NCBI GenBank assembly: GCA_018823125.1
Contig: JAHJIW010000005.1
Span: 67,562 to 131,561 of the forward strand
Length of the DNA stretch: 64,000 nucleotides
Direction: 5' to 3'
From: Candidatus Margulisiibacteriota bacterium
GTDB taxonomy: Bacteria > Margulisbacteria > WOR-1 > JAHJIW01
Shown here in pieces: positions 4,842 through 58,649 of this stretch. The notes below the pieces were generated by a model. That model saw nothing but the letters and a program-made list of their open reading frames with translations. It had not been told where the DNA came from and did no database searches. How positions within the stretch are numbered: position 1 is the stretch's first letter; every line of letters starts with the position of its first letter. The position numbers and the translations under genes are program-made.

Positions 4842-5423
4842 ATGACAGAAAAAAAATCAATCAACCTAAAAAAGATCGAAAAAGCATTCAAAGAAATATT
4901 AGTGGCCATCGGCGAAGATCCAAAGCGTAAAGGCATTCAGGATACGCCGCGCCGCGTAGCCAAAATGTACGCTGAGATTTTTGCGGGACTGCAAAAAGAT
5001 CCCAAAAAGGAATTAACCGTTTTTCACGAAGAAGAACACGAAGAAATGGTGATGGTGAAAAACATTCCTTTTTATTCGATGTGTGAACACCATTTTGTGC
5101 CGTTTATTGGGAAAGCTCACGTGGTGTATATTCCAACCAAGGGCTATGTAACCGGACTATCAAAGCTGGTTAGAGTAATCGAAGGTTTTGCCAAGCGGCC
5201 GCAGCTGCAGGAACGCCTAACTACCCAAATTGCGGATACGTTAATGAAGGGATTGAAGCCGCAGGGTGTTATGGTGGTAATCGAAGCAGAGCATCTTTGC
5301 ATGTCACTTAGAGGGGTTAAAAAACCGGGCTCCATCACGGTTACTTCTGCGGTACGCGGTGTCTTCCGCAAAAATCCTACCACGCGCGCTGAAGCCATGT
5401 CGCTGATTAAGGATTCAAAATAG
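4842..5423 (+). CDS. folE: GTP cyclohydrolase I
   Basis: Conserved CEHHFVPF motif and length. Start set to ATG at 4842 (MTEKK) immediately after the fhs stop; the track ORF extends upstream into fhs. Confidence 0.9.
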
Positions 5424-5430
5424 GTAACTT

Positions 5431-6537
5431 ATGCGAGACGAATTCAAGTATTTATTAGCACTTTCATCCGTTCCGGGTATTGGCAACGCTACGCTCAAAG
5501 CGCTTTTGACTCACTTTGAGCTGGCGGAAGATATTTGTACCGCTACGGAAAAAGAATTACTAAGTGTGCCGGGGATCAATCCCAAAATTGTAGCGGAAAT
5601 TATAAAAGCCCGTGAAACTCATAATTTTGATATTCAGCTTAAAATTGACATGCCTTCGCATACGGAAATTATTGAATACACTAATGAAAAATATCCGCAG
5701 CTATTAAAAACCATTTATGACCCACCGCCGTATTTATTTGCCAGGGGTAATTTAGATTTACTAGATGAGCTATGCTTTGGTGTGGTTGGAACCAGAAAAG
5801 CTACCAGTTACGGCTTAAAAATGGCGCAGCATATTTCAACCGGGCTGGCTCAAGCTGGTTTTACCATTGTTTCCGGAATGGCCGAAGGAGTGGATGCGGA
5901 GGCGCACCGGGCGGCACTAGCCGTGACCGGAAAAACGATTGCGGTGCTTGGTTGCGGCGTAGATATAGTTTATCCATCCATTAACCAATCACTTTATAAA
6001 GAAATTTATAAACACGGTTTAATTATTTCCGAATTTTTACCGGCGAGCGAACCCACTAAATATACTTTCCCTAAAAGAAACCGTATAATTTCAGGATTAT
6101 CAAAAGGGGTTTTGTTTGTTGAAGGCGGGAAAAAGAGCGGGGCCATGATTACCGTTGATTATGCACTGGAGCAGGGGCGAGATGTTTTTGCCATACCGGG
6201 AAGAATTGATACCGATGCGGCGCAAGGTACCAACTGGCTGATTCAACACGGCGCTAAATTAGTACAAAACGCAAATGATATTTCAGAAGAATACGGAATG
6301 GTTTGTGATGCCCACAATGTTTGCAGTGTTAATCGGGTCAAGGCCATTATTAAAAATTATCAGCTTGACCAGGAAAGCGAAAGAATATTAGAAGCCCTGG
6401 CCGAAGGTGAACAAAATATCGAAATTTTATCCCGCCTTTTAGATATGGATATTCGATCGCTGCAGGCAAAATTAACCATGCTGGAGTTAAAGGGAATCGT
6501 GAAGCGGGTTTCGGGCAGGGTGTTTGGCCTGGCGTAA
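5431..6537 (+). CDS. dprA: DNA processing protein DprA (Smf)
   Basis: 368 aa; Rossmann-like core GVVGTRKATSYG ... IVSGMAEGVDAEAHRAAL typical of DprA. Confidence 0.9.
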   Translation: MRDEFKYLLALSSVPGIGNATLKALLTHFELAEDICTATEKELLSVPGINPKIVAEIIKARETHNFDIQLKIDMPSHTEIIEYTNEKYPQLLKTIYDPPPYLFARGNLDLLDELCFGVVGTRKATSYGLKMAQHISTGLAQAGFTIVSGMAEGVDAEAHRAALAVTGKTIAVLGCGVDIVYPSINQSLYKEIYKHGLIISEFLPASEPTKYTFPKRNRIISGLSKGVLFVEGGKKSGAMITVDYALEQGRDVFAIPGRIDTDAAQGTNWLIQHGAKLVQNANDISEEYGMVCDAHNVCSVNRVKAIIKNYQLDQESERILEALAEGEQNIEILSRLLDMDIRSLQAKLTMLELKGIVKRVSGRVFGLA

Positions 6538-17256: not shown

Positions 17257-18720
17257 TTGGCAGAAGAAAAAATTGTAGAAAAACTTATCTTTGAATTATC
17301 GGACGAGGGAAACTGCGGAACCTTTCTCCCCGAACTAGATGTACCCCAGGTGAGCTTGCCCGAAAATTTATCCAGAAAAAACCTGCCGCTGCCCGAAGTT
17401 TCAGAAGTAGAAACCGTCAGGCACTTTACTAAGCTTTCTCGGTTAAATTTTGGCGTAGATTTAGGATTTTATCCTTTGGGATCCTGCACCATGAAGTATA
17501 ATCCCAAGATCAATGAAGAAATTGCAGCATTAGCTGGTTTTGCCAGGCTCCATCCATACCTGGAAGAAGATCAAATCCAGGGGATATTGGAACTCCTCTA
17601 TAACTTTGAGGAATATCTTAAAGCATTGTTTGGTTTTTCTGCCTATACTTTTCAACCCGCCGCCGGTGCCCACGGTGAACTTACCGCATTGATGATGATT
17701 AAGGCCTACCATAAAGACCAGAGACAGGAGACCAGAGATAAGATTATAGTTCCAGATTCTTCGCATGGGACTAATCCGGCGTCAGTTACTATGGTTGGTT
17801 TCAAATCGGTGGTAGTGAAATCAAATCCGCAGGGTGGGGTCGATTTAGATGCATTAAAAGCTGTGGTAGGTGACGATACCGCGGGTATTATGCTAACTAA
17901 TCCCAATACTTTAGGTCTTTTTGACGAAAATGTTATTAAGATTGCAGAGGTTATCCACAAGGCGGGCGGTCTTTTATACTATGACGGCGCGAATGCTAAT
18001 GCCTTATTAGGAAAATCACGTCCGTCCGATTTAGGTTTTGACGTTGCTCACTTTAATTTGCATAAAACATTTTCCACTCCGCATGGTGGGGGCGGGCCGG
18101 GGTCCGGTCCGGTAGGAGTAGCGGAAAAATTAGTTCCTTATCTTCCACAACCCAGAGTTATTAAAGAAGGTAATAAGTTCAAATTAAAAACTGCCGACCC
18201 AGATAAATCGATTGGCAAAGTGCATTCGTTCAATGGAAATATTGGAGTGATCATAAAAGCTTTCTGTTACGTAAGACTTTTAGGGAAAGCTATTCAAGAA
18301 GTCAGCGAAGATGCGGTTTTGGCAGCCAATTATCTTATGCAGAAGCTTAAAAAGTATTATTACCTGCCGTACGATCGAACCTGCCAGCATGAGTTTGTGC
18401 TTTCGGCCAAATGGCAGAAAGAAAAATATGGAGTGAAGGCTTTGGATATTGCCAAGCGGCTGATCGATTATGGAATTCATCCGCCAACCGTATATTTTCC
18501 TTTAATTGTTGAAGAAGCTTTAATGATTGAGCCTACCGAAACCGAGTCAAAAGCTACCCTGGACCGCTTTATTGAGGTGATGATTCAAATTGCCAAGGAA
18601 TGCGAACAAAATCCGGAAATAGTTAAATCATCACCTAAAAGTACTCCGGTTTCCAGGTTAAACGAAACCCAGGCGGCCCGTAATCCAAAACTAAAATGGG
18701 AACCCCAAACCTCAAAATAG
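17257..18720 (+). CDS. gcvPB: Glycine dehydrogenase (decarboxylating) subunit 2
   Basis: 487 aa; PLP-dependent GcvPB-like motifs ([27 protein letters not shown]). TTG start as given by the track. Confidence 0.85.
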
Positions 18721-19406
18721 AGATATCTCCAAAATTTGCTGGGCCGCAAAACATGGCGGTCGACGTACAGCTTCTTAAGGACTTCGAAAAAGGTAAAATC
18801 GGCGCAACATTGCGAATTTACTCCTGGGCACCAGCTTGTTTATCTTTAGGCTATTCTCAAAAAAAAGAAAAATTACTAAATGAAAGATTAGTTAAACAAT
18901 ACGGCTGGGATGTAGTTAAACGCCCAACCGGAGGAGGAATTGTTTTTCATAACGAGGATGAGATTACATATTGTTTAATTTTACCTTATGATTTTAAAGG
19001 ATTACCGCAAGGATTAATCCCTTTATATAAGTACATCTCGGAGATTATTGTATCTGCACTTAAAAAGATTGGCGTACCTGCCGCAATTAGTAATAATGCA
19101 GCCCGCCGTGAAAATGCGGACCTTTGTTTTTCTTATCCGGCCGAATATGAAGTTGTAGCTAATGGAAAGAAAATCGTGGGGAGCGCTCAAAAACGCGGCA
19201 AAAGAGGCTTTTTACAACATGGGAGTATCTTTGTCACAAGAAAAAACTATGATAATTTTTTTAAAGTATTAAAAGCCGGATCAGCTACCGATCTCGAAAG
19301 TGCGATTTCGGTTGAAGAAGTTTTAGAAAAAAAAATCGATGATAAAGAAATTATTGCAGCGCTTAAAGAAAGTTTTACTTCTGTTTTTAATAGGAATACA
19401 ATATAA
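18696..19406 (+). CDS. Lipoate/octanoate-protein ligase family protein (BPL/LPL catalytic domain)
   Basis: [18 protein letters not shown] and [11 protein letters not shown] motifs typical of LipM/LplA-type enzymes. Overlaps the gcvPB 3' end; exact start uncertain. Confidence 0.7.
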
Positions 19407-19408
19407 AT

Positions 19409-20854
19409 ATGGCCACCTGGCAGGAAACTTTTAAAAAAATCAATGAGTTCAAATACGAGCTGCCGAAATCCTTCCTTGAAGGGATGCGGGTTCCCGGCAT
19501 TATTTATGCCGATGAGCAGATGATGGATCATATTTTTTCGGAGAATGCGCATATCCAGGTTGCCAATGTGGCTTATTTACCTGGGATTGTCAGGGCGTCA
19601 CTGGCGATGCCGGATATCCATTATGGTTACGGTTTTCCGATTGGAGGCGTAGCGGCCTTTGATCCTGAAAACGGCGGGATCATTTCACCCGGCGGAGTTG
19701 GTTTTGACATAAATTGCGGAGTGCGAATCCTACGTACTGATCTTAAAAGAGAAAAAGTTTTACCCAAAATAAAAGATATGGTTTACGCCTTAGCCAATAA
19801 CGTGCCGTGCGGAGTGGGTAGAGTCGGATCCATAAAACTTAAACTTTCGGATTTAGAAAAGATTATGAAAAAAGGATCAACCTGGGCAGTAGAAAATGGT
19901 TACGGCTGGCAAGAGGATGTTATTCATACCGAGGGAAAAGGGTGTCTGGAAGGAGCTGATCCGGAATGCGTTAGCAGCCGGGCTAAAGAACGCGGTCTTC
20001 CACAGCAGGGAACCTTGGGTTCAGGCAATCATTTTGTGGAAGTGCAATACGTTCAAGAAATTTATGATGAGGCTGCGGCGCGCGTGATGGGGATCGAAAA
20101 AGACACGGTTACGATTATGATTCATAGCGGGTCGCGGGGATTAGGACATCAGGTCTGTACGGATTATATTTCGATTATGTTAAATGCGTCTCGAAAATAT
20201 GGAATTGCTCTTCCTGATCGCCAACTTTGCTGTGCTCCGGTTAATTCTCCTGAAGGCAATGAATATTTTGCGGCGATGGCTGGTGCAGCTAACTATGCCT
20301 GGACTAATCGGCAGATGATGATGCATTGGGCTCGAGAAGCTTTTGCGCAAGTAGTGGGCGGGACTCCGGAAAAACTAGGTATGGATCTTATTTATGACGT
20401 TGCTCACAATATCGCTAAAATGGAAATGCATAACGGAAAATTACTTTGTGTGCATCGCAAAGGGGCAACGCGAGCTTTTCCTGCCGGCCATCCGGAGATT
20501 CCAGAGGATTATAAGGAAATTGGTCAGCCGGTTATTGTTCCGGGGGATATGGGACGCTGTTCTTTCTTGTTAGTGGGAACGCAAAAAGCAATGGAAGAAT
20601 CATTTGGTTCGGTTTGTCACGGTGCCGGCCGGATGATGAGTAGAACCAAGGCTTCGCATACTTTTAAAGCTGATAAACTAGTTGCAGATTTAGCCGGTAA
20701 AGGAATTGTAGTTCACGGCGCCAGTAAACGGGGCCTATCCGAAGAAGCTCCGGAAGCCTATAAAGATGTACGGAATGTGGTAAATGTAGTGGAAGGCGCT
20801 GGGTTAGCCAAAAAGGTAGCCAAGTTAAAACCCCTCGGCGTAATCAAAGGATAA
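19409..20854 (+). CDS. rtcB: RNA-splicing ligase RtcB
   Basis: 481 aa; conserved metal-binding His/Cys residues (GSGNHF, DINCGVR). Confidence 0.9.
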   Translation: MATWQETFKKINEFKYELPKSFLEGMRVPGIIYADEQMMDHIFSENAHIQVANVAYLPGIVRASLAMPDIHYGYGFPIGGVAAFDPENGGIISPGGVGFDINCGVRILRTDLKREKVLPKIKDMVYALANNVPCGVGRVGSIKLKLSDLEKIMKKGSTWAVENGYGWQEDVIHTEGKGCLEGADPECVSSRAKERGLPQQGTLGSGNHFVEVQYVQEIYDEAAARVMGIEKDTVTIMIHSGSRGLGHQVCTDYISIMLNASRKYGIALPDRQLCCAPVNSPEGNEYFAAMAGAANYAWTNRQMMMHWAREAFAQVVGGTPEKLGMDLIYDVAHNIAKMEMHNGKLLCVHRKGATRAFPAGHPEIPEDYKEIGQPVIVPGDMGRCSFLLVGTQKAMEESFGSVCHGAGRMMSRTKASHTFKADKLVADLAGKGIVVHGASKRGLSEEAPEAYKDVRNVVNVVEGAGLAKKVAKLKPLGVIKG

Positions 20855-20997
20855 AAATCTCCGATTTTTCAAAAAAAATGCCTCTCAAACTGAAATTTCA
20901 TACCGGAAACGCAGATATACCAATGCAAAGAGGCAAACCCCGATTCGCCACGATGAACATATGCCCTGAAATAAATATTAACTAAGGAACAGGGCTT

Positions 20998-22347
20998 ATG
21001 AGTATTAATTTTTATCCTACAATTTTAGTAGCTTCTACTGGTTTATCTGCCAAGCAGGGTGTGTCTAATGATCCACAAAAGCTGATAAAAAAAGCTGAAC
21101 ACCTGATTCGTATGGGTAATTTTGGGGGAGCAATTGATCAAATTGAGACAGCACTAACGTTAATCCTAACCCCCACACAAAAGGATAAAATAAATGATTG
21201 CTTGAGTTATATTGTTTCGAAATTGGAAAAGCAGCCAACGCATACGCCAAAAAGAATGTTGGTGTTAGCTAAGGCATATTTATTATTGGATAGAAAAGAA
21301 GAGGCATATTATCAATTTCGGCAATGTCTTGAATATCCAGGAGTTTCTAATGAGGCTCAAGGATATGTTGATAAAATTGTCCAGTCTTTAATTTCCGATA
21401 ATTTACATTTAGCAGGCTTATTTTTTACAGAAGGAGAAATTGACGAGGCGATAAGTTGTTATCAATCAATTCTTGAATTTGTGCCGGATTCGGTTGAGGC
21501 CCACGTTCAATTAGCACTGCTTTATTCTCAAATTCCAGATCACTTTGAAAAGGCGATTGTCGAAGCTGAGCTAGCTTTAAGCTATGATCCGGATAATCGG
21601 TTTGCTTACGTTGCCTTGCTTACCGCGTACACCAATACGTTTCAATACGATAAAGTTTTGAGTCTGGTAGAGGATGAGCATCTATTAGAGAAATATCCTA
21701 ATGATGCCAGTATTAACTATCTTTATGGAAAAACGCTTTTTGATTATGTTCCAACCCAACCGGCTACCCGAGAAATTTTGGGGCAAATGCTAGAAAATGA
21801 TTCTATTGATTTTTCCGCTCAGCAATTATCAGAAATAAATTACTTTATGTCTTTTGCCGTTTATTTTGATGTGAATGCAGTTAGTAATTTTGAAGAAAAT
21901 CGTAAAACGATTATCGATTTATTAGAAAATGCAGTGCGTCTGAATCCGCATTATCAGGATGCCTGGGTGCTTTTATCGTATGCCAGATATCAGGCTGGGG
22001 CCTTTTTAGTAGGGCAAAACCGTAAAATTGAAGCGCTAAATTATCTTAATGATGCACTTGAAGCTGCCGAACAAGTGTATAAAAACGGCAGTCATGATTT
22101 GCGGTACTTAAGATATTGTGGAAGCAATGAAGAAACAACTGAGACCATAAATAAAATACTTTATGTATTATTACACGAATATTCAGAAACCGAAGTTAAG
22201 TTACTTTTAGGAAGAGCTTGTATGCTATGCGGTGATTACGAGGCTGCGGTAAATTATTTTAGTTCGTTTAAAAATGATAATGGTGAAATTCCGGAAGAAA
22301 TCCAAAGAAAATTCGATTATATTGCCACATTAATTGAAGTGCATTAG
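20998..22347 (+). CDS. Hypothetical protein with TPR-like helical repeats
   Basis: 449 aa, helical repeat-like composition; no catalytic motif recognised. Confidence 0.5.
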   Translation: MSINFYPTILVASTGLSAKQGVSNDPQKLIKKAEHLIRMGNFGGAIDQIETALTLILTPTQKDKINDCLSYIVSKLEKQPTHTPKRMLVLAKAYLLLDRKEEAYYQFRQCLEYPGVSNEAQGYVDKIVQSLISDNLHLAGLFFTEGEIDEAISCYQSILEFVPDSVEAHVQLALLYSQIPDHFEKAIVEAELALSYDPDNRFAYVALLTAYTNTFQYDKVLSLVEDEHLLEKYPNDASINYLYGKTLFDYVPTQPATREILGQMLENDSIDFSAQQLSEINYFMSFAVYFDVNAVSNFEENRKTIIDLLENAVRLNPHYQDAWVLLSYARYQAGAFLVGQNRKIEALNYLNDALEAAEQVYKNGSHDLRYLRYCGSNEETTETINKILYVLLHEYSETEVKLLLGRACMLCGDYEAAVNYFSSFKNDNGEIPEEIQRKFDYIATLIEVH

Positions 22348-22369
22348 TCTAAAGCTAACCTAGTTTTGC

Positions 22370-22825
22370 TTAAAAACCCGGACGAATATAATAAGGGATA
22401 TCAATTGGCCAGCCTTCATCTGAGGTTAATAATGAATTTTGATAGGCATTTAAACTTCCCCTTAAGGCTTCAGCCATTTTATTAGCATCCTCTTGGGTAA
22501 GATTTCCCATTATTCCTCGATTAACCGATACCTCTAGGCTTCTAATTGATCCATCCGTTTCTAGTACAAGACGTACGATTATTTCGCCTTTTTTTTCCGT
22601 GTCGCCTTTAAGTATGGAATTATTATAGGCAGCTCTTACTGCTTTTTTTAAGCGGGCTCGAAATGGACTAGTTTCATCCATAACCATTTTTTCTGCAGTA
22701 AAGATTCTACCGTCTTGAGTAGTAACCGTTCTTTCCTCTGTTTTGTTACCTGCATCCTGTGTAAATCCGTGGTAGCGACTTGGAATTCTTGGATTATTTA
22801 CTCTGCCAAAACCATGGATAGTCAT
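22370..22825 (-). CDS. Hypothetical protein (151 aa)
   Basis: Open frame convergent with the TPR gene; no signal peptide; possible TonB-C-like fold is only a guess. Confidence 0.4.
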   Translation of the reverse strand: MTIHGFGRVNNPRIPSRYHGFTQDAGNKTEERTVTTQDGRIFTAEKMVMDETSPFRARLKKAVRAAYNNSILKGDTEKKGEIIVRLVLETDGSIRSLEVSVNRGIMGNLTQEDANKMAEALRGSLNAYQNSLLTSDEGWPIDIPYYIRPGF

Positions 22826-23016
22826 GATACCTTCACTCCCTGAAAGAGGCCTTTTGAGCTAATCGTTAAAGAATGCCCCTTTCTATATATATTATCGTGA
22901 TAAATGGCCTAAAACTTGCATGAAATTGGCGATTTTAAGCAAAATAGTGGGGGGCAGAAGTGAAATTTATCGACAAAAGGCTCGATAGGTAGTAAGTAAA
23001 GATTTAGCTCTATCAA

Positions 23017-23355
23017 ATGGAGGATTTTATGCCACTAGTTAAGGGAACCGAAGGCGGCGCTTATAAAATTATGAGGTTCCCCAAGAAAATAAATATAATC
23101 CGCAAGCAGACTGTGATCAAAAAAGGCAAAGAACAAACCGAAAAGACGGTTTTTTCAATATCTTCTAACGTATCGCCGCAGGAATTGACGCGAAGCGTCA
23201 ACTTTTTATTGGGAACGCAGATTGAGAACATTGATATTAATGACGATGGTGAAATTTCGGATAATGAATTGATTGCGCTGGATCAGATATTAGAAGATAG
23301 GGAAAAAGAAAAGCAAGAAAACACCATTATTCTGGATGTAACTTACGGAAAATAA
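23017..23355 (+). CDS. Hypothetical small protein (112 aa), K/E/D-rich
   Basis: RBS GGAGGA shortly before the ATG; first gene of an apparent three-gene cluster. Confidence 0.45.
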   Translation: MEDFMPLVKGTEGGAYKIMRFPKKINIIRKQTVIKKGKEQTEKTVFSISSNVSPQELTRSVNFLLGTQIENIDINDDGEISDNELIALDQILEDREKEKQENTIILDVTYGK

Positions 23356-23373
23356 ATTATTAGGAGTTAAGCT

Positions 23374-24126
23374 ATGGCAGTTATAGATGGCAAATTAAAT
23401 ATTGCGGGAAAATATTTTCGGGGAGGCAGGGCTCCCGGAATCAGGGAAGCGGCGCACATATTCAGACAACGGGGTGAGGCTGGGAGACTGTTGAGGACCG
23501 GTTGCGATAGTTTTGCGGTGATGCGTTCGGAAGATGCAGGATTAACTGTTCCGGAGCGGGTCAACCGGCTGATGTTAAGCCGGCAGGCCATGACCAGGAT
23601 CATGTGTGTTCCTGAAGCAAGGATTACTCCGCTTGAAATTTTATTTTTGTCGGACCTGGGCGTGGTGGAAGAGATTATTGTTCCTCCTAGGTTTTTTAAT
23701 AAAGGCGAAAAGAGCCGCAGACTTGAATTTTTGATCGGGATCCGGGCGGACCAAAACGGCAGGGATTTTTTGGACGTAACTACCGGTCGGGAAAATTACC
23801 GCGTAAATGCAGAAGGGCTCGCGGTGGGGCTAACCCGGCACATGGCGGAGGAGATTATTTCGGCCATAAATGTTAAAACTACGCTGGGCGTCAGATTTCC
23901 TGCCTCGAATGAAAGCCGGTATCTGTCGGTTGCGGTCAGGGATGAAGTCTGGAAGTCTGAAAGGCGCTTAAGACATACCGGGATGTCCGGGTATTTTTTG
24001 GCAAAGGATCCAGATGGAACCCCGCGGATACAGGGTTTGCGCTATTCGGTTGAGCAATTTACCGAAACCAAAGATAATGTAGATCGTGATTTCGGCGTGG
24101 TGCTGGCCCGCGAAATAATGTTATAA
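23374..24126 (+). CDS. Hypothetical protein (250 aa), Arg-rich, atypical codon composition
   Basis: RBS TAGGAG before the ATG. G/C-ending codons (CGG, AGG, GCG, CCG) are frequent, unlike flanking genes; no known motif recognised. Confidence 0.45.
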   Translation: MAVIDGKLNIAGKYFRGGRAPGIREAAHIFRQRGEAGRLLRTGCDSFAVMRSEDAGLTVPERVNRLMLSRQAMTRIMCVPEARITPLEILFLSDLGVVEEIIVPPRFFNKGEKSRRLEFLIGIRADQNGRDFLDVTTGRENYRVNAEGLAVGLTRHMAEEIISAINVKTTLGVRFPASNESRYLSVAVRDEVWKSERRLRHTGMSGYFLAKDPDGTPRIQGLRYSVEQFTETKDNVDRDFGVVLAREIML

Positions 24127-24137
24127 TCACCTTCGTT

Positions 24138-25199
24138 ATGCAAACCGAAGCCCACGAAGCAATGTTTTACGATAAATTAAAGGACGGTTCTGTTAAATGC
24201 CGCCTTTGCCCCTGGAATTGTGTAATTGATGATGGGCGAGCCGGCTATTGCGGGGTACGCCAAAACGTTGATGGAACCCTTTATTCAGTTATCTACGGCA
24301 AAGCCACCAGTGTGGCGGCGGATCCCATCGAGAAAAAGCCTCTCTATAATTTCAGGCCGGGAACCAGAGTTTTATCTTTAGGTACTTACGGTTGTAATAT
24401 GCGCTGCGGGCACTGTCAAAACTGGCAGATCTCACACGTGATTCCGGTCAAAGATTTTACTTCGGGAAAAACTTTTAAAGTGGTGGAACCGCCGCGCTCC
24501 GAAGAGATTCCCCCCGAAAAATTAGTTACGCTGGCGATCGAAAATGATTGTGCGGGAATTGCCTGGACCTATAACGAACCTACCATCTGGTTTGAATATG
24601 CTTATGACGGTGCCAAACTGGCTAAACAAAATGATTTGTATACCGTTTTTGTTACTAATGGTTATATCAACCTGGAACCATTGGCGGCCATTGCTCCATA
24701 TTTAGACGCTTACCGCGTAGATATTAAAGCCTTTAATGACGATGCCTATAAGTTATTATGCAAAGTCCGATCAATGCAGCCGGTTTTGGATGCAGCCAAG
24801 GCCGCTAAACATAAACATAACATGCACGTCGAAGTAGTTACTTTAATTATTCCCACCTTAAACGATGATGATAAGCAATTAACCGGCATTGCCAATTTTA
24901 TCAAAAATGAATTAGGTGCCGATGTTCCCTGGCATGTAACCCGTTTTGTACCTTATCTGGAATTTAAAAATTACGAAGTAACTCCGGTAGAAACGCTGGA
25001 AAGAGCCGTAGAGATTGGTTATAAAGCCGGATTAAAGTACGTATATATTGGTAATGTTGCTGGTCATCCCGCGGAGCATACTTATTGCCCCAAATGTAAA
25101 AAAGGCTTAATTGAAAGGCACGGCTTTAGTATCGGAGCTTTTAATATTGATGAAGCTAATCAATGTATTTTCTGCGGCGAAAAGATCGATATTACTTAA
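24138..25199 (+). CDS. Radical SAM enzyme, AmmeMemoRadiSam-system (AmrS)-like / PFL-AE family
   Basis: CNMRCGHC (CX3CX2C) radical SAM motif plus an N-terminal Cys cluster KCRLCPWNC. Neighbouring-gene-like codon usage. Confidence 0.75.
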   Translation: MQTEAHEAMFYDKLKDGSVKCRLCPWNCVIDDGRAGYCGVRQNVDGTLYSVIYGKATSVAADPIEKKPLYNFRPGTRVLSLGTYGCNMRCGHCQNWQISHVIPVKDFTSGKTFKVVEPPRSEEIPPEKLVTLAIENDCAGIAWTYNEPTIWFEYAYDGAKLAKQNDLYTVFVTNGYINLEPLAAIAPYLDAYRVDIKAFNDDAYKLLCKVRSMQPVLDAAKAAKHKHNMHVEVVTLIIPTLNDDDKQLTGIANFIKNELGADVPWHVTRFVPYLEFKNYEVTPVETLERAVEIGYKAGLKYVYIGNVAGHPAEHTYCPKCKKGLIERHGFSIGAFNIDEANQCIFCGEKIDIT

Positions 25200-25203
25200 T
25201 TTT

Positions 25204-25686
25204 TTACCTTCTGAATACTATTCTGAGGACAACCAACACGATTACCGCTGCCATGGTAAAGAATAAAAGTATTACGCGGGTAGCTTTAATGGGATGCACG
25301 GTTTGGTGTCCCGGAGCAACAATTTCTAGGCTATCAGCATGAATATCTAAGTCTCCCCCGTGTTGTTTACAAGCCCGATGAAATACTCCAATTACGGTTA
25401 CGGTGTCGCCTTTGAAGTTGTAAGATCCGGCTTGTTTGATTTTATCGGCCATTTCATTTGGCATGAAAATTCCGATGGCGTTATATCTATCCGATACATT
25501 AACCCAGGCATATTTTCCGCGTTTCATTACATTGCCGATAACTTCACCATTAAATTCAACCGTTTTGCCGTCTAAAATTTGTTCGTTATCGATTAGATAT
25601 GAACTGTCAACGGTAGTGGCGGCAAAAGCAGCGACAGCAAGTAGGGTACAAAGTGCAAACACTAAGATTATAATTTTTTTAAGCAT
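25204..25686 (-). CDS. Hypothetical secreted/membrane-anchored protein, possible OB-fold
   Basis: Start set to ATG at 25686 (MLKKIIILVF, RBS AGGAAAGGGA), one nt after the trkH stop. N-terminal signal peptide and C-terminal hydrophobic segment. Confidence 0.5.
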   Translation of the reverse strand: MLKKIIILVFALCTLLAVAAFAATTVDSSYLIDNEQILDGKTVEFNGEVIGNVMKRGKYAWVNVSDRYNAIGIFMPNEMADKIKQAGSYNFKGDTVTVIGVFHRACKQHGGDLDIHADSLEIVAPGHQTVHPIKATRVILLFFTMAAVIVLVVLRIVFRR

Positions 25687-25687
25687 A

Positions 25688-27193
25688 TTATCCCTTTCCT
25701 CTAAAGGTAGCAATAAAGAAACCGATTAAAGCAAAGATCGACATAAATTCGAGTCGACCTAACCACATCTGAAGAATAAACACTACTTTTAATCCAGCGG
25801 GCATCGCAGGACTGGTAATTCCACAGGATAAACCAACGTTGGCGGCCGCGGATACCGATTCGAAAGCGGCCTGCTCAAGCGGATAGCCGTAAATGATGCC
25901 GGCTACGGTACCTAAGAAATAAGTGATTAAATAAGCCAGAATAATTAACAGCGTAGTTCTGACAAATTTTTCTGTCATGATAATATCTTTGATATGGTGA
26001 AATTTAGCTGAGATTACCGCGGTTCCAGGAGACATAACGCGTTTTACATCCTGGAATAATGCTTTAATAAAAATCCCAACACGTAAAACTTTGATTCCGC
26101 CGGCAGTTGAACAAGCCGATCCGCCGATGGCCATGGCCAGCATGGCACCAAACATAGCAATCGTTTTCCATTCAAATACAAATTGCTGAGCATAAATAGT
26201 CATGTAGCCGGTGCCGCTGTGCGCGGATAAGATCTGATAAAATCCCTTTCTAAAAAGAGCTAACCAATTGGGGTAAGTATCCATGCGGGTGAGTCCGATC
26301 GCGGTTAAGGTAAAAATAATTAGTACGCTAAAGAGCAGGGTTTTAGTTTCGATGTTGGTTCTTAATTCTTTCCATTTTCGATCCCACAGGGCGTAATGCA
26401 GACCAAAGTTAAGGGTACCTAAAATCATTAATGCCATGGTAACCAATTCAAACGGAAAGCTGTGATAATAAAGAATACTTTGCGAATAAGGAGTAAATCC
26501 TCCGGTATCAAACGCCGCCATAAAAATCCAGAGACCGTTTAAAAATGATTCTAAAAGCGGGATACCTTCAAAAAAAGCAACGACCGTCAACATGAAAGTG
26601 CCGATTACTAAATAAACGATACTGATCAGCCAGATAAAACGTGCGGTTTGAATTACATTGGGCAAAACCTTTTCTTCGCGGGCTTCGCCGACGTACATGC
26701 GGTAGGCCCCGGCGGTTCCTTTAATTAAAAAAGTTAAACCGATAACCACAATTCCCTGACCACCTAAAAACATCATCAAATGGCGCCACATATTTAAGGA
26801 AATTGAAATGTGGTCTTTGCCTTGCAGGATGGAAAGCCCGGTGGTGGCAAACCCGCTCATCGAATCAAAGCAAGCGTCCAAAAATGAGCCAAATTGTCCC
26901 GAAAGATATAAAGGAATGGCGCCGATAAACATGGCCGCCAACCATGCGGTAGCAGCCACTACCAGGCCGTGCATCCAGTTTAAGTCCTTACGCGTTGAAC
27001 AAATGATTTGCAGCACTAATCCGATGGCTAAACCGGCAAAAAGGGCAATCCCGAAATTCAGCGCCATGGCGTATTCTAAAAAGAGAATGCCGGTAATGAG
27101 GGGAATGATCATGACTAGTCCCAAGGCAACGATTAATCGTCCGATGTGGAAACCAATTACTTTGAAATCATCTAGTCTGGGTCTGAGTAGCAT
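25688..27193 (-). CDS. trkH: Trk/Ktr-type potassium uptake membrane subunit
   Basis: 501 aa polytopic membrane protein with TrkH-like repeated pore loops. Confidence 0.9.
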   Translation of the reverse strand: MLLRPRLDDFKVIGFHIGRLIVALGLVMIIPLITGILFLEYAMALNFGIALFAGLAIGLVLQIICSTRKDLNWMHGLVVAATAWLAAMFIGAIPLYLSGQFGSFLDACFDSMSGFATTGLSILQGKDHISISLNMWRHLMMFLGGQGIVVIGLTFLIKGTAGAYRMYVGEAREEKVLPNVIQTARFIWLISIVYLVIGTFMLTVVAFFEGIPLLESFLNGLWIFMAAFDTGGFTPYSQSILYYHSFPFELVTMALMILGTLNFGLHYALWDRKWKELRTNIETKTLLFSVLIIFTLTAIGLTRMDTYPNWLALFRKGFYQILSAHSGTGYMTIYAQQFVFEWKTIAMFGAMLAMAIGGSACSTAGGIKVLRVGIFIKALFQDVKRVMSPGTAVISAKFHHIKDIIMTEKFVRTTLLIILAYLITYFLGTVAGIIYGYPLEQAAFESVSAAANVGLSCGITSPAMPAGLKVVFILQMWLGRLEFMSIFALIGFFIATFRGKG

Positions 27194-45707: not shown

Positions 45708-45712
45708 TGCAT

Positions 45713-45785
45713 GCCCCCGTAGCTCAGTGGATAGAGCAGCGGTTTCCTAAACCGTTGGTCGGAGGTTCAACTCCTCTCGGGGGTA
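45713..45785 (+). tRNA. tRNA-Arg (anticodon CCU)
   Basis: 73-nt cloverleaf folded by hand: 7-bp acceptor stem, D-stem GCTC/GAGC, anticodon stem GCGGT/ACCGT with loop TTCCTAA (U33, anticodon CCT, A37), T-loop TTCAACT. CCA not encoded; followed by a T-run. Confidence 0.85.
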
Positions 45786-45788
45786 TTT

Positions 45789-46259: not shown

Positions 46260-46364
46260 ACTTATCAACTCCTTTATTAAATTATACACCGAAAAGATTG
46301 ACACAAAAAGATCCGGGTGGCACAATATTTACACGGCGGTGAGTTTTTTTGCCGTGGTGATAAA

Positions 46365-47006
46365 ATGCTGTCATTGCTGGTAAAAGTTATACCATTAAAT
46401 ATGGCGTCAGCCTTAAGCCCGGGGATCCTGGCGGTGTCAGTTTTACTGCTGGGAGGAAAACGCCAGCCGGTTTTGCGCAGTTTGGCGTTTTTTTTAGGTA
46501 CGCTGGTGGTTGGAGTAATTGCGGTTTCCGCCGGATTTTTTCTGGGCCAGGCGCTGTCCACCGGGATGAAACAGGGAGCGGCTTCGTCTGTAATTGATCT
46601 GATCCTCGGAGTGATCTTTATTGTTTTCGGGTTCAAGCTTTTTTTTGCCCGGGAAATCAATCCGTCTCTCAAAGAGTACCGCCATCAGCTGCTGACGCTG
46701 TTTGCGGGCGGGCTTATTTTAAGCGGCACCAATTTTGACGCCTTGTTTTTGTCTTTTGCCGCCGCCAAGGAAGTGGGCGGCACCCCGGACATCCAGATGA
46801 TTTCCAGGATATGCCTCTTGGTTTTGAATTTGATATTTTTTACCCTGCCGGTCCTGCTGCCGCTTTTGGCCTTTATTTATTTTCCGCGCTACGCTGCCGG
46901 TTTTTTTAAAAAGATCAATCAGTATGCATTAAAGTACAGCCGCTTCATGCTTTCGGTTTTATTTATCGTGTTTGGAGTGGTGTTGGTGCTACGGGGAATA
47001 AGGTAG
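46365..47006 (+). CDS. Hypothetical polytopic membrane protein
   Basis: Start set to ATG at 46365 (MLSLLVK); hydrophobic throughout. A TTGACA-N17-CACAAT promoter-like element lies upstream at 46298-46326. Confidence 0.5.
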   Translation: MLSLLVKVIPLNMASALSPGILAVSVLLLGGKRQPVLRSLAFFLGTLVVGVIAVSAGFFLGQALSTGMKQGAASSVIDLILGVIFIVFGFKLFFAREINPSLKEYRHQLLTLFAGGLILSGTNFDALFLSFAAAKEVGGTPDIQMISRICLLVLNLIFFTLPVLLPLLAFIYFPRYAAGFFKKINQYALKYSRFMLSVLFIVFGVVLVLRGIR

Positions 47007-47074
47007 GGTTTTCTTTATTGACATTAAAAATATTGAATGGGAAAATACTATTAATTCTAAAGGGGAGGTAAACA

Positions 47075-47623
47075 ATGAAAGTATTAAAATGGATCCTGAT
47101 TATTGTTTTGGTTCTGGTACTGCTCCTGATTGCGTTTCTGGCTTACATGGGGATGATTTTACCGTTGAAAATTAATGAAACTAAGATGGGCCCTTATACC
47201 ATTGCCTACGAAAGCTTTACCGGCCCTTACGCAGAGACGGGACCGGTTTTTGATAAAGTTTACAAAGCATTAAAAGCAGAAGGGATCGGTTCCACTAGAG
47301 GGCTTGGTATTTATTACGATAATCCGAGCAATGTGCCAGCGGACAAGCTGCGTAGTGACTGTGGCGTAATCATTGAAGCTGCAGACCTGGCTAAGTTTAA
47401 TAAAGTAAGAAGAAAATTTAAAATTAAACAAATTCCGCAAGGCGACTGCGTGGTAGTAGAATTTCCGCTGCGCAACATGCTTTCTTACATGATGGGGCCG
47501 ATGAAAGTTTATCCAACGCTGATGAAATATATTCAGGCGAAAGGTTATAAAGTTTCGATGTCCTATGAGCTTTATGATGAACTGCAGAAGAAAATTTATT
47601 TTGTGATGGGGATTACGAAGTAA
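47075..47623 (+). CDS. Membrane-anchored GyrI-like / effector-binding domain protein
   Basis: N-terminal TM helix followed by a roughly 150 aa domain resembling GyrI-like small-molecule-binding domains. A TTGACA-N17-GAAAAT element lies upstream at 47018-47046. Confidence 0.5.
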   Translation: MKVLKWILIIVLVLVLLLIAFLAYMGMILPLKINETKMGPYTIAYESFTGPYAETGPVFDKVYKALKAEGIGSTRGLGIYYDNPSNVPADKLRSDCGVIIEAADLAKFNKVRRKFKIKQIPQGDCVVVEFPLRNMLSYMMGPMKVYPTLMKYIQAKGYKVSMSYELYDELQKKIYFVMGITK

Positions 47624-47662
47624 AAAGGAGAAAATAATATAAATCCTTAAGGAAGTGAAGTT

Positions 47663-49312
47663 ATGAATCTAAAAAAAATAATCCTGTTAGCCGTGATTGT
47701 GATCCTGGTCGTAGTCCTGTCTATTCCTTTAGCCCGCAACCTCATCCGCTCTTTTTACACTTATGACATTTTAATTAAAGGCGGCACGGTCTATGATGGA
47801 AGCAAAGAAAAACCTAAAGTTGAAGATATCGGGATCAAGGGTGACAAAATCACCGCGGTAGGAAAAGATCTTTCCGGATCGGCCATGAAAACGATCAATG
47901 CCGAAGGTTTGATCGTCACGCCCGGTTTCATCGATTGCCATAACCATACCGACCTAAATATTTTAATGGCCCTCCTCATGTCCGGTAAAACGGATGATTT
48001 TTCCATGATCACTCCGGCCTGGAGAAATAATCATAATTATATAACTCAGGGGGTTACAACTATAGTTACCGGGTTATGCGGCGGAGGGCTGCCAGACACA
48101 AACATGTGGCTGGGCCTGATTGATTCTCAGAAATTTGCAAGCAATGTTTATCACCTGATACCTTACGGCATATTAAGACAGCAGCTTTTCGGGGACAACC
48201 AGCCAACAACCCTAACTGCGGAGCAGCTTGATACTCTTAAAAAGATGGTGGAGAAAGAAATGCAGAACGGCGCCATCGGCGTTACCGTGGGTTTGGAATA
48301 CGCACCCACTTGTTTCACAACTACCGATGAGCTGGTTGAGATCGCCAAAGTGGTCAATAAATACGGCGGACTCTACGATGCTCATATCCGGGACCAGACC
48401 GGCACCATGCATGATAACGGCCAGCCAGGGGTGCTGAATTCGATTAAAGAAACCATCGAGATCGGCAAACGCGCCAATATCCCTGTCCACATCTCGCATA
48501 TTCAGCTCAACCTTCCCTGGAATAATGTCCAGGCAAAACAAATGTACGGCTTAATTGAGCAGGCCCGTGCTGAAGGTGTAGATATTACTGCTGACCAGCA
48601 TCCCTACGATGCCGGTTATGCGGTGCTTTCCTACCGCCTGCCGGATAAGTTCAAGACCGGCCTCGGCGTCAATGCAAAATATAAGAATCCCGAAGGCAAA
48701 GCGGAGATGATAGCAGCTACCAAAAAGATATTTACTTTCCTTGGTCCGGATAAGATCATGCTTACTTCAGGGCCTGAAAAATACATCAACAAGACCATCC
48801 AGGAGATCGCAAAAATGGAAGGAAAGGATCCGGCTGAAGTTTATGTCGACCTTTCCTGCCTGGATCCGGCGCCCTTTGCGCTCTTCCAGGAAATCAGCGA
48901 TAAAGTTAATCGGGAAAACATGCAGCACGATTACGTTTTCACCGCTTCCGATGGTTTTACGGTTTTTGAATCTGCGGATTCACCGCATCCCAGATTTTTT
49001 GGCTGTTTCCCGCGCAAAATTAAAAAATATGCGGTGGAGGAAAAATTGCTGAGCTTAAATGACGCGATCCGTTCGATGACTTCGCTGCCGGCGGCCAAGT
49101 TTAAGCTTAAAGACCGGGGCGTGATCGCCGTGGGAAAATACGCGGATATTGCGGTCATCGATCTAAAAAATCTTAAAGAAAATGCTACTTACGCTGAACG
49201 CGGGCTTTATTCCGAAGGCATTGAATATTTATTGGTCAACGGTAAACTGGCAATCGATAACGGTAAGATAACCGGCAAAAAAGCCGGGCGCGCATTGAGG
49301 CTTGGACAATAA
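47663..49312 (+). CDS. Amidohydrolase-family D-aminoacylase (N-acyl-D-amino-acid deacylase-like)
   Basis: Signal/anchor segment; metal-binding GFIDCHNH motif and overall D-aminoacylase-like layout. Confidence 0.8.
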   Translation: MNLKKIILLAVIVILVVVLSIPLARNLIRSFYTYDILIKGGTVYDGSKEKPKVEDIGIKGDKITAVGKDLSGSAMKTINAEGLIVTPGFIDCHNHTDLNILMALLMSGKTDDFSMITPAWRNNHNYITQGVTTIVTGLCGGGLPDTNMWLGLIDSQKFASNVYHLIPYGILRQQLFGDNQPTTLTAEQLDTLKKMVEKEMQNGAIGVTVGLEYAPTCFTTTDELVEIAKVVNKYGGLYDAHIRDQTGTMHDNGQPGVLNSIKETIEIGKRANIPVHISHIQLNLPWNNVQAKQMYGLIEQARAEGVDITADQHPYDAGYAVLSYRLPDKFKTGLGVNAKYKNPEGKAEMIAATKKIFTFLGPDKIMLTSGPEKYINKTIQEIAKMEGKDPAEVYVDLSCLDPAPFALFQEISDKVNRENMQHDYVFTASDGFTVFESADSPHPRFFGCFPRKIKKYAVEEKLLSLNDAIRSMTSLPAAKFKLKDRGVIAVGKYADIAVIDLKNLKENATYAERGLYSEGIEYLLVNGKLAIDNGKITGKKAGRALRLGQ

Positions 49313-49947
49313 TGTTTTTTTTGAAACGATTTTTACTGATAATTGTTTTACTTATCAGCTTAGCCTCTTTTGCCCGGGCTGAAGTATTGAGCAGTGCGAT
49401 CCCGGTCAGTTTAGGACAGTGGGTCCTTGCTCCGTTTATCGGGCAGCAAACCAATGTTAATAATAATTCTGCGCTTTCCCAGACGCTCTATGGATTTTCG
49501 GCTGGCTACGGGTTATGCGACCGTACGGAGCTGGATCTGATCTATGAGTATGGCACCTTCAGCGGGGTTCCCGGCATGGAAATGTTGTTGCAGAGCTACA
49601 GTTGCTCATTGAAATATAATCTTTTGCTGGAGGCGCCGGTTTCGCTGTCGGTGGGGGCCAATTATTCTTTAATATCACAACGCGATAATTTTGCCGGATC
49701 GCCCAGCGGCAGTAACTATGGCTTTAAGGTATTGATCAGTAAAGTATTTTCTTCTTTGCATGCTTACGTCTGCTTAAACCGTTCCATCACTTCACTGGCC
49801 GGAGAAAGCAGTGCCACCGAGGCCACGCTGGGCGGCATGTGGGTGATAACGAACCAAATTGTTTTGATAACCGAAAATACCTGGCAGCTGCAATCGGCCG
49901 GTTACACCAGTAATCAATTATGCTTCAGCGCTGCTTATGTTTTGTGA
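49312..49947 (+). CDS. Hypothetical secreted protein, possible small outer-membrane beta-barrel
   Basis: Start overlaps the upstream stop (TAATG). Signal peptide ending FARA, alternating beta-like pattern, aromatic-rich C-terminus. Confidence 0.45.
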   Translation: MFFLKRFLLIIVLLISLASFARAEVLSSAIPVSLGQWVLAPFIGQQTNVNNNSALSQTLYGFSAGYGLCDRTELDLIYEYGTFSGVPGMEMLLQSYSCSLKYNLLLEAPVSLSVGANYSLISQRDNFAGSPSGSNYGFKVLISKVFSSLHAYVCLNRSITSLAGESSATEATLGGMWVITNQIVLITENTWQLQSAGYTSNQLCFSAAYVL

Positions 49948-49968
49948 TAAAGATTTGAGTCAGATATA

Positions 49969-51273
49969 TTAACTGCCTGCTTTTTTCAGCTTGAACTTGA
50001 AGGGCTCGGTAAATACCAGCGAGGGATCGCCGGTTGCCGGATCGATCGGCCCATCCTTAAGATAAAATTTTATTTCAATGCTGCGCTCGTTGATATCGTA
50101 GAGCATGGTCCAGAGCGTCCGGTGAGGCAAAGGACCGACTGACTGTTCAGCTATGTCAGTGGTATGGGCATAGACCAGGCTCATCGCCTCCTGGACATCA
50201 TCCGGTGAAAATTTCCCCTGATGGGCCTTGACATAATCAGTAAGCTTGGCGTAGCGGTAAAAAGTATTGTAAGTGCCTTTGGTTGTATAGGTCGGGAACT
50301 TGCTGGCGTCGGGATAGAGGTAAACCGCGTGATTGGTTATGACCTGCGGCCGGTCATTGTTATCGATGAAGTGATAACTGAAATCCTTGGGTGAAATATC
50401 GAAAATGAAAGACTTGCCGGAGCGGTCACAGATCAGAAGATGTCCGGGCATGAATCCCGCGACCAGCTTGTTATTGAGGATTGCCATTTTGGCCTCGTCC
50501 ACCGTCGCGCAGGTATCCAGGATCAATCTGTCCAGCTGCAGCATGTTCAGGCCGCCAACATCATCGCCCAGCGGATTGCTATCGGTACTGGGCGTGCCAA
50601 GATCATCTTCCAGCAGGGCCACGATCAGACCTTCGGAGTTCATCCCCCCCTGGAAGCCGTTTAATAAGTCCAGAGCGCCCACGACGATAGAGGAATACCC
50701 TTTATCCGGGTAGAGTTCTATGACAAAATCCCTGGAATAAAGATTATGCTCGCCCTCGACCCGCTTCATCCCCATCATCTCCCGCATGGTCGCGGTGTGA
50801 AAATCTATATTGTGGCCAACCAGATCGTGGCCATTGGCCGTGGAATCGGCCGGGAAAAATACCGCCGAGCAGCCGGGAGGAGTGATAAAGATATCGTAAT
50901 AAAGGCCGCTGGTGACATAAGTGTTATCTGTGGGAGACAGGCCGTATGATTTGGCCACGCCTTTCATCCGTTCAAGCAGGATCGGGTAGTTCTTTTCCAT
51001 GTACTGGCGGCGAGCCTCGGCGTAAAGCGGTCCGGCATAAGGGAGAAGCTTTTTGATGCCGAGCCACTCCTGGGCGATATCGCCCAAGGCTTTGCCGATC
51101 TCCTCATTGGTCCCGCGCAAAACGATGTGCCGGATCTCCAGATAAGTATCCGGCTCCTTTGCCAATATCACTTCATTGGTGACTATAACCGGGTTGGAGT
51201 TTTTGGCTAAGACGCCGGTCCCGAATCCGGCGATGAAACAAGAAACAAGTAAAAGACTAAGCAATTTTTTCAT
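49969..51273 (-). CDS. Peptidase C45-type Ntn-hydrolase (acyl-CoA:6-APA acyltransferase-like), secreted
   Basis: Signal peptide; putative autoprocessing site PPGCSAVFF. Start set to the internal ATG (MKKLLSL) preceded by AGAGGGGGAG. Confidence 0.7.
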   Translation of the reverse strand: MKKLLSLLLVSCFIAGFGTGVLAKNSNPVIVTNEVILAKEPDTYLEIRHIVLRGTNEEIGKALGDIAQEWLGIKKLLPYAGPLYAEARRQYMEKNYPILLERMKGVAKSYGLSPTDNTYVTSGLYYDIFITPPGCSAVFFPADSTANGHDLVGHNIDFHTATMREMMGMKRVEGEHNLYSRDFVIELYPDKGYSSIVVGALDLLNGFQGGMNSEGLIVALLEDDLGTPSTDSNPLGDDVGGLNMLQLDRLILDTCATVDEAKMAILNNKLVAGFMPGHLLICDRSGKSFIFDISPKDFSYHFIDNNDRPQVITNHAVYLYPDASKFPTYTTKGTYNTFYRYAKLTDYVKAHQGKFSPDDVQEAMSLVYAHTTDIAEQSVGPLPHRTLWTMLYDINERSIEIKFYLKDGPIDPATGDPSLVFTEPFKFKLKKAGS

Positions 51274-51310
51274 AATTTCTCCCCCTCTAAAAATATTATA
51301 TCCCTGCAGA

Positions 51311-52498
51311 TCATTTATTTTCAAATAACGGTTTTAGATCAAGCTCCGTCCATCCTGGATTGCCAAGCGCTTTGATCCACATCTTGAGCTCTGCCGGTAC
51401 AACCACTAACTGCTGAATTGCCAGGTTAGGCCGGGTGGCGCCACCCAGAGTGATCGGAGTATCGAGTACTTGCCTCATCACTTGCGCATTGAATTTGCCC
51501 TTATATTTTTCCCCCAGGGCTATCAAATTCTTATAGCGGGTGTAAGAGCGCGTTTCGCCGCCTTCGGTCGGCTCCATATTCCAGGCCGGATTCACAAAAT
51601 GATTGGTCTCGACCAGTAAGCCATCTTTGTCCGGCATTCTTTTCTTGGTATCATCAATCGAACATTCATAGGCGAAGGCGGTATTTTTATCTGCAACGGT
51701 AAAGATCTCAGCCAAACCGAGGCGGATCGAGTTGAGCGCCGCGTCCAGCTGCGTTATGTTCGAAGAATCAAATAAAAAGCTGGTGATGTAAAGTAGCGTC
51801 ATTTGCCGGTTGTCTACCGACGCGGTCCCGCACGATGCGGCCCCGTCGTTAAGCTCCATGAATAATCCATCTTTATTTAATCCGTGCATGGCTGTCACGC
51901 CGCCGGGATAGCCCACGACCGCGGTCGGCACTGCGTCTTCCGGCTGGTAAACGATCACGCTGAGATAGGGGTTAAATTTTTCATAGTATTCCGGATAATC
52001 AAAATTCCGGCCGAAAACCAGCGGCCCGCCGCCGGTATATTCTCCCCAGGCAACGATGGCTGAACAATGGACTGCAGTCTCGGAAATGATGGGCAGGACA
52101 TTGATCTGGTCGAGCGCCAATAATTTATCAAGCTCCAGGCCGGAAGTCTCGGCCATGCCGTAAATAATGTCCTGAAAACGTTTGGGATATACGGCAAAGA
52201 TCCCTCTGGTGGTATCATTAATATCTTCAAGCTTCAATCCTACTTCTTTGACGTAAGTTTCTTCAATTGCAACTTTATACATCTGTGCTAACTGTTCCTT
52301 AAGCAATTTTCCTTCCTGCCGTCCCATCTCCCGGTAAGTGCCGCGCAGCACGACCACGTTGAGATTGCCCGCTTTATATAATTTGCCGCCCTCGTACTCT
52401 GAAACCAATTTTAGCTCGACCGCCAAAGCCGGCAGTGAAATGGAAAACGAAAAGAAAAGGATCAAGATGAACAAAAGGGTAGCTTTTTTTAATAACAT
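51311..52498 (-). CDS. Peptidase C45-type Ntn-hydrolase paralog, secreted
   Basis: Signal peptide; HCSAIVAWGEY...GRNFDY motif aligning with the other two paralogs. Confidence 0.7.
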   Translation of the reverse strand: MLLKKATLLFILILFFSFSISLPALAVELKLVSEYEGGKLYKAGNLNVVVLRGTYREMGRQEGKLLKEQLAQMYKVAIEETYVKEVGLKLEDINDTTRGIFAVYPKRFQDIIYGMAETSGLELDKLLALDQINVLPIISETAVHCSAIVAWGEYTGGGPLVFGRNFDYPEYYEKFNPYLSVIVYQPEDAVPTAVVGYPGGVTAMHGLNKDGLFMELNDGAASCGTASVDNRQMTLLYITSFLFDSSNITQLDAALNSIRLGLAEIFTVADKNTAFAYECSIDDTKKRMPDKDGLLVETNHFVNPAWNMEPTEGGETRSYTRYKNLIALGEKYKGKFNAQVMRQVLDTPITLGGATRPNLAIQQLVVVPAELKMWIKALGNPGWTELDLKPLFENK

Positions 52499-52532
52499 TT
52501 GAAGTCTCCTTTTGGTGAATTATAACACTTTT

Positions 52533-53723: not shown

Positions 53724-53979
53724 TGTACCTTTTTACCTCGCCGTATATTTTATCGCACCTGGCGGCTGAAGTAAATGCTGCTGCATTGACACAAAAACCA
53801 TCCCGCGCTGCAAAACCAACCGGATTTGGGGGCAGGATTGCGGCTCGAATTATGAGCATAGCCCATAGTCCCATATACAAGAGCGTGGCGGCCGCACTAA
53901 AGCTTCAACCCGAAGATGATTTTCTTGAAAAGTGAAATTTATCCTTGCTTTTCTCGATAAAAAACCAAAGGACCCTTAA

Positions 53980-54657: not shown

Positions 54658-54678
54658 CCGTATGCTATAATTCTCTCT

Positions 54679-56918: not shown

Positions 56919-56919
56919 T

Positions 56920-58557: not shown

Positions 58558-58620
58558 CTTCTTTATTAATTATTCAAATTCTACTCCATCCCCACAAAAA
58601 ATCAATTACTCTTTCCTTCA

Positions 58621-58649
58621 TTGACATCAAAATAGGGTAGTGGGAGAAT
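58621..58649 (+). promoter_or_regulatory. Sigma-70-like promoter (TTGACA-N17-GAGAAT), copy 1 of a conserved ~40-bp block
   Basis: Block CTTTCCTTCATTGACATCAAAATAGGGTAGTGGGAGAATA at 58611-58650; RBS AAGGAGG and ATG 21 nt after the -10. Confidence 0.5.

Follow-up and report, generated by a model that had tools for sequence, protein, structure and literature searches.

The target gene of this analysis belongs to a block of four genes that lies between an rtcB RNA ligase gene and the gene for an AmmeMemoRadiSam radical SAM enzyme. The window is the whole 64-kb stretch of DNA that was analysed, and its numbering is used for the features of interest, which are the following:

19409-20854, + strand: rtcB RNA ligase gene, the upstream anchor (Pfam RtcB, 596 bits)
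20855-24137: lineage-specific 3.3-kb block (3283 bp, four genes) between rtcB and the radical SAM gene
20998-22347, + strand: TPR-repeat gene, block member
22370-22825, - strand: orf151, block member
23017-23355, + strand: orf112, block member, 112 codons
23362-23366, + strand: Shine-Dalgarno-like AGGAG, 7 nt 5' of the target ATG, read from the sequence
23374-24126, + strand: target gene, protein-coding (250 aa, pI 9.5), encoding an Arg-rich member of a rare uncharacterised family
23395-23604, + strand: conserved N-terminal region of the target protein, approximately residues 8-77, delimited from alignments and holding most of the phmmer matches
23605-24123, + strand: less conserved rest of the target protein, closing in a conserved V-L-x-R-E
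24138-25199, + strand: AmmeMemoRadiSam radical SAM gene, the downstream anchor (TIGR04337, 328 bits against a cut-off of 220)
45712-45786, + strand: tRNA-Arg(CCT), the decoder of AGG, found by ARAGORN and Rfam and the only tRNA in the window

The target ORF is a real, ordinary and correctly framed protein-coding gene. It starts 18 nt past the stop of orf112 and its own stop is followed after 11 nt by the start of the radical SAM gene. The annotated frame is interrupted only by its terminal stop, while the other five frames hold 2-16 stops each. The codon log-likelihood of the annotated frame, 0.18 bits per codon, is the sole positive value, the remaining frames being zero or negative (<= 0.004); for comparison, the genes of the window reach 0.32 bits per codon (sd 0.10). 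Eight distant homologs align in this frame and share nine invariant residues with it. Stop counts, codon log-likelihood, the AGGAG and the in-frame homologs together refute the mis-framing that the first-pass annotation had offered as one explanation of the gene's composition. The sequence is also reproducible between samples. An identical protein is on deposit as hypothetical protein KKB81_01295 in the Candidatus Margulisbacteria MAG GCA_018814585.1, and the target contig recurs in several samples, with four sampled contigs identical or one base apart.

An overlapping RNA structure had been named as a further explanation, and it finds no support. Rfam returned no match at E <= 1 over 22300-24400, and across the whole window its sole match is the tRNA. 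The predicted folding energy of the target ORF is unremarkable and non-significant (MFE z -1.30), with 2 of 20 shuffled sequences folding as well; a control of the same length from the radical SAM gene gave a z of +0.08.

To place the composition of the gene in its local context, we compared it with a working set of 60 ORFs of the window, none of them overlapping and each with 100 codons or more. GC at the three codon positions of the target is 0.55, 0.44 and 0.52, and its GC3 lies about one sd above the window mean (0.44, sd 0.078, range 0.26-0.63). After correction for amino acids, it contains 121 G/C-ending codons where 104.7 are expected (z 2.2, rank 14 of 60), and by Karlin codon-bias distance to the remaining window it comes 26th of 60. 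In dinucleotide distance, the 750-nt windows that cross the gene (23251-24500) rank 176-225 of 254, a native-like signature that is nearer the window average than that of most segments. The codon usage of the target falls inside the window's normal range, and with ranks of 14 and 26 among 60 genes the claim that it is an outlier largely fails.

Part of the described preference for G/C-ending codons does stand. The target has 72 synonymous codons ending in G where 43.7 would be expected (z 5.0, rank 3 of 60), while those ending in C are depleted (z -1.9). Among its 31 Arg codons, 19 are CGG or AGG, a pair that supplies 26% of Arg codons elsewhere in the window (binomial p = 3.4e-5), and no other gene of the window is as extreme. 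The over-used AGG is read by the tRNA-Arg(CCT) at 45712-45786. The preference for G-ending codons, especially CGG and AGG, is thus real but not unique to the target, as the G-ending excess is at least as strong in two other window genes, 52533-53723 and 46317-47006, which rank above it.

Most of the G/C-rich look of the gene comes from amino-acid composition. Arginine accounts for 12.4% of residues, the highest of the 60 genes (the others have a mean of 3.9%, sd 1.5%; z 5.6), which bears out the earlier description of an Arg-rich product, and lysine for only 3.2%. The resulting R:K ratio is 31:8, compared with approximately 1:2 in the other proteins of the window. The GC content of the gene is 0.503, whereas its amino acids combined with average codon usage predict 0.489 and the coding mean of the window is 0.442; consequently, approximately three quarters (~77%) of the GC excess is non-synonymous. 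Abundant Gly and Ala raise GC at codon positions 1 and 2, and the high basic content, a trait of the whole family, rests in this copy almost wholly on Arg and not on Lys.

The contrast with the flanking genes owes much to which genes these are. The immediate neighbours do have lower GC3 (0.28, 0.26, 0.43 and 0.40), as the description of A/T-ending flanks implied, and two unusually AT3-rich genes just upstream of the target sharpen the difference. No genes of the window are more AT3-rich than these two, the TPR gene (amino-acid-corrected GC3 z -6.8) and orf151 (z -5.3). They also have an atypical dinucleotide signature (rank 13-26 of 254), and a foreign origin is more readily suspected for them than for the target gene. 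GC3 is strongly heterogeneous along the contig in general: it is 0.26-0.47 in the first 27 kb of the window and 0.51-0.63 (z up to 8.4) in a run of genes at 46317-58557, which is broken by one AT3-rich gene at 53980-54657 (GC3 0.32).

Several repeated elements were observed in the window. Orf112 encodes an EF-hand-like loop (DINDDGEISDNE; DNA 23239-23261), the DNA of which is 87% identical over 23 nt to 22273-22295 near the 3' end of the TPR gene (NDNGEIPE), a similarity that may be due to chance. A 40-nt element containing TTGACA occurs in four copies (47008-47047, 58611-58650, 61328-61367 and 63858-63897), of which three lie just 5' of + strand genes and the fourth lies at the window end. 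Two of its copies are followed by a 102-nt repeat of 86% identity (58654-58755 and 63899-64000). The 40-nt element and the 102-nt repeat, neither with a match in Rfam, look like a shared promoter and leader. Two tandem 48-nt units of 75% identity at 59186-59281, inside the gene at 58937-60073, point to a repeat-containing protein as its product.

The target product is a soluble, basic, Arg-rich protein that belongs to an unannotated family of very sparse distribution. When 1.84 billion representative proteins were searched exhaustively with phmmer, eight relatives were recovered (P0002-P0009, E 1e-11 to 1e-4), so that the family comprises nine 50%-identity clusters in that set, target included, and one extra member, P0010. 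Word-index searches of 5.8 billion proteins added no members to those known, a scan of metagenome contigs returned only the source contig and one known member, and no relatives were present among viral contigs, plasmids and phages. Neither the word-index nor the phmmer searches found a homolog with more than 50% identity to the target. None of nine members has a Pfam match at E <= 1 or an NCBIfam match, and the window protein has none in PHROGs or PADLOC. Sequence searches of the PDB with the full-length profile, the N-terminal profile and the longer member P0004 gave no real matches, the best scores being to STEAP4 (E 2) and a designed miniprotein (E 0.13).

The alignment of the family has nine invariant residues (R16, R33, G34, A48, M50, R51, D54, R62 and S69). 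The N-terminal motif reads FRGG...ILRxRGxGGxLLxVG...FAVMRxxDxxL..ER..S, and V-L-x-R-E is conserved at the C-terminus. All members are basic (pI 9.2-10.0) and none has a hydrophobic segment; no Cys is invariant, and P0003 contains none at all. Combined R and K make up approximately 13-16% of the full-length members, and the 31:8 ratio of the target copy is the most extreme of the family. The homologs contain 7.7-10.3% Arg, compared with 3-6% in most of their neighbours, and their GC3 is not raised relative to these neighbours; several sit on contigs of 51-54% GC. Relative to local backgrounds, the family as a whole uses CGC and CGT sparingly for Arg and relies mainly on AGR, CGG and CGA, a pattern that would be expected of weakly expressed accessory genes. 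The high basic content is thus conserved in the family at the protein level, whereas the Arg-for-Lys shift and the G-ending preference belong to the target copy only.

The genomic contexts of the homologs are diverse. P0002, P0003 and P0005, which are mutually less than 50% identical, have a common arrangement (L086-L089) in which dapB and dut/dcd are divergent upstream of the gene and an M16 peptidase gene is convergent downstream. Such common synteny speaks for a functional gene that has been inherited vertically over a long time within one lineage. P0008 and P0010 are located between gcvT and leuD; P0004, which is approximately 140 residues longer than the other members, is encoded 3' of a PMT_2 glycosyltransferase gene; and P0009 lies among small genes beside an FBPase gene. 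No partner gene recurs across these contexts, and no gene in the homolog neighbourhoods resembles the other genes of the window's block.

The position of the target in its own genome was evaluated by comparison with 80 related loci, which were fetched with the radical SAM protein as query. The rtcB gene precedes the radical SAM gene in 13 of the 80 loci, twelve of them labelled Margulisiibacteriota or Saganbacteria and one labelled Omnitrophota (L019). The two genes are separated by only 11-18 bp in four loci (L006, L015, L025 and L036), and in the other nine by 0.4-2.5 kb of mostly unrelated cargo. This cargo includes a serpin, a SAM methyltransferase, a HepT/NTase toxin-antitoxin system, a DUF2204 nucleotidyltransferase, an M23 peptidase and unannotated ORFs. 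At this junction the radical SAM gene has no AMMECR1 or Memo gene beside it. The 3283-bp, four-gene insert of the window is the largest of this slot, and tblastn of its four genes against the 80 related loci found no homolog. The comparison of gene orders thus presents the rtcB/radical SAM junction as a variable slot for accessory genes with what appears to be recurrent insertion. For the window's block, gain is more parsimonious than repeated loss, and insertion is the probable route as judged from relatives that are only 52-73% identical in the radical SAM protein. The locus closest by radical SAM identity (L004, 73%) keeps the upstream rib-ABC-gcvPB-lplA synteny; its contig has no rtcB match, and an unannotated 248-codon ORF (4955-5701, - strand) stands before its radical SAM gene.

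Features commonly associated with genomic islands are present only in part. The break in synteny is clear. Atypical composition is absent from the target; it is found in the TPR gene and orf151, where it is directed towards AT. The block genes contain no integrase or transposase domains recognised by Pfam, no direct repeats flank the block, and the only tRNA lies 21 kb off, so that mobility genes, a tRNA target and flanking repeats are all lacking. The block genes deviate compositionally both ways, the target in its G-ending codons and the TPR gene and orf151 as AT3-rich genes, and these opposite deviations provide no single donor signature.

Taken together, these results most probably describe an Arg-rich gene of a rare family in a variable slot, the G-rich look of which stems mostly from amino-acid make-up; we hold this reading with good confidence. 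It has to be weighed against a recent horizontal acquisition from a GC-rich donor, in which the G-ending codons and the substitution of Arg for Lys would be a donor signature not yet ameliorated. The first-pass annotation had proposed such a recent acquisition, and the synteny break is consistent with it, since none of the related loci contains the block to which the target belongs, and the slot itself varies between genomes. The G-ending excess (z 5.0), an R:K ratio far from the approximately 1:2 of the other window proteins and the most extreme in the family, and the presence of several homologs on contigs of 51-54% GC would also fit; given the Lys-to-Arg shift and the G-ending codons, the donor background of the block would perhaps have been more GC-rich. 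The codon usage on which the proposal had been built does not carry it, however, and neither do the dinucleotides. The ranks in GC3 and codon-bias distance are within the window range, the dinucleotide signature is among the most native-like of the window, and the other block genes depart in the opposite, AT3-rich direction. Neither an integrase, a transposase, a tRNA nor a flanking repeat marks the block, and no homolog of more than 50% identity names a donor. Horizontal gain as such is plausible, on synteny and not on composition; a recent gain with a preserved donor signature is possible and somewhat unlikely. A further candidate cause of the composition is a wrongly called frame, or a structured RNA or other non-coding element that overlaps the ORF. 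The coding strand is indeed G-rich (GC skew +0.24), and frame 2 of the minus strand has only 2 stops over the target. Against this stand the empty Rfam search, the non-significant folding energy, homologs with invariant residues that align in the annotated frame and the zero or negative codon log-likelihood of the remaining frames, and we give this explanation next to no credence.

The rare-family reading leaves room for a functional tie to the neighbouring enzyme. The target probably shares a transcript with orf112 and with the radical SAM gene, the latter because its start lies 11 nt past the target stop. Only one weak terminator-like site, with a 5-bp stem inside the target ORF, precedes the radical SAM gene. 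The target protein could be pictured as a partner or substrate of the adjacent enzyme, replacing AMMECR1 and Memo or adding to them, and such a role would draw on the common strand, the short spacing and the weakness of the terminator-like site. It would also draw on a predicted fold in common with FGE-type maturases, which catalyse a reaction that anaerobes also carry out with radical SAM enzymes. The comparative evidence speaks against such a role. No radical SAM gene of this kind adjoins any of the nine other family members, and the 13 related genomes that have the radical SAM gene at this locus lack the target protein, which was not found next to a radical SAM gene in any of the 80 related loci. 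The target protein does not match the AMMECR1 or Memo models, and the family has neither a conserved Cys nor a Gly-radical-type motif. We regard this role as improbable. The same low expectation applies to the fuller proposal, in which the target represents an undescribed family (approximately 10 sequences among 15 billion) whose basic, cytoplasmic members adopt a C-type-lectin/FGE-like fold, and was recruited in this genome as a partner or substrate in the radical SAM operon. A functional tie to the radical SAM enzyme would nonetheless be the most interesting open possibility at this locus, and if the target does work with that enzyme, it would provide a way into identifying the enzyme's substrate.

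Structure prediction provided some insight into what kind of protein this may be. AlphaFold2 gave a weak model for the window protein with its 9-sequence alignment (pLDDT 55.5), for which Foldseek against the PDB returned nothing significant; the best matches were LAGLIDADG nucleases (E 0.17, TM 0.16). The model of P0003 with 10 sequences was better (pLDDT 68.6, pTM 0.55); taken together, the two models are of low to moderate confidence. A C-type-lectin/FGE-like fold, predicted to span the remainder of the protein and part of the N-terminal region, is the best structural hypothesis. It is a fold resemblance and not demonstrated membership, because the profile test fails and the catalytic and disulfide cysteines are absent. 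As the family has no conserved Cys, the target protein is presumably not a formylglycine-generating enzyme. The cluster of invariant Arg, Asp and Ser residues may bind an anionic ligand in the cytoplasm, with nucleic acids and small molecules that are phosphorylated or carboxylated as candidates. This putative function is predicted from the invariant Arg cluster, as no conserved gene neighbour gives a functional hint.

Two other assignments were considered and rejected. The order of predicted elements (alpha-beta-beta-alpha-beta-beta-alpha) and the weak Foldseek matches had suggested a LAGLIDADG homing endonuclease; this was dismissed on the TM of 0.16, the absence of a Pfam match and an hhalign probability of 0.1% against I-CreI. 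The DGR variable proteins TvpA and Mtd were among the fold matches and had suggested a protein of that type, which was dismissed for want of a template/variable repeat.

As a compositional anomaly the target gene matters little, with codon statistics in range and a GC excess that lies mostly in the protein sequence. Its significance is of a different kind. A family that is unannotated in Pfam and NCBIfam, with an Arg/Gly-rich motif and a predicted fold, is a small addition to the "dark" proteins of Margulisbacteria, and the junction of rtcB and the AmmeMemoRadiSam radical SAM gene is of interest as a recurrent slot for accessory genes in Margulisiibacteriota and Saganbacteria.

Comparison with known systems helps to define the locus. 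Compared with the DGR variable proteins Mtd and TvpA, the target lacks a template/variable repeat pair, no repeats involving 23374-24126 being found within 20500-24500 or across the 64-kb window, and it lacks a reverse transcriptase in the scanned neighbours, as Pfam detected none in the target and seven flanking genes (18696 to 25713). The predicted fold recalls the FGE-sulfatase (DUF323, PF03781) and C-type-lectin-like proteins, such as ToxD, CarF, PvdO, the C-terminal domains of EgtB/OvoA, and SUMF2. The target family differs from these in having no match to PF03781 or another model and in structural alignments of only 10-13% identity. Having no conserved Cys, and none at all in P0003, it lacks both the copper/Cys chemistry of FGE and the C-type-lectin disulfides; the target protein is, moreover, strongly basic, with a predicted cytoplasmic location. 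An Arg/Gly-rich N-terminal segment like that of the target family is not known from any of the FGE-sulfatase/C-type-lectin families. Relative to the AMMECR1 and Memo partners, the target has no similarity in Pfam or NCBIfam and its adjacency is conserved neither in relatives nor in homologs, although it resembles them in lying directly 5' of the system's radical SAM gene on the same strand. In comparison with genomic islets at integration hot spots, the window block has no integrase, transposase, tRNA or flanking direct repeat, and the target's dinucleotides are native-like. The likeness to such islets lies in the arrangement, as an unannotated block splits a conserved rtcB/radical SAM pair and the cargo at this position varies by genome.
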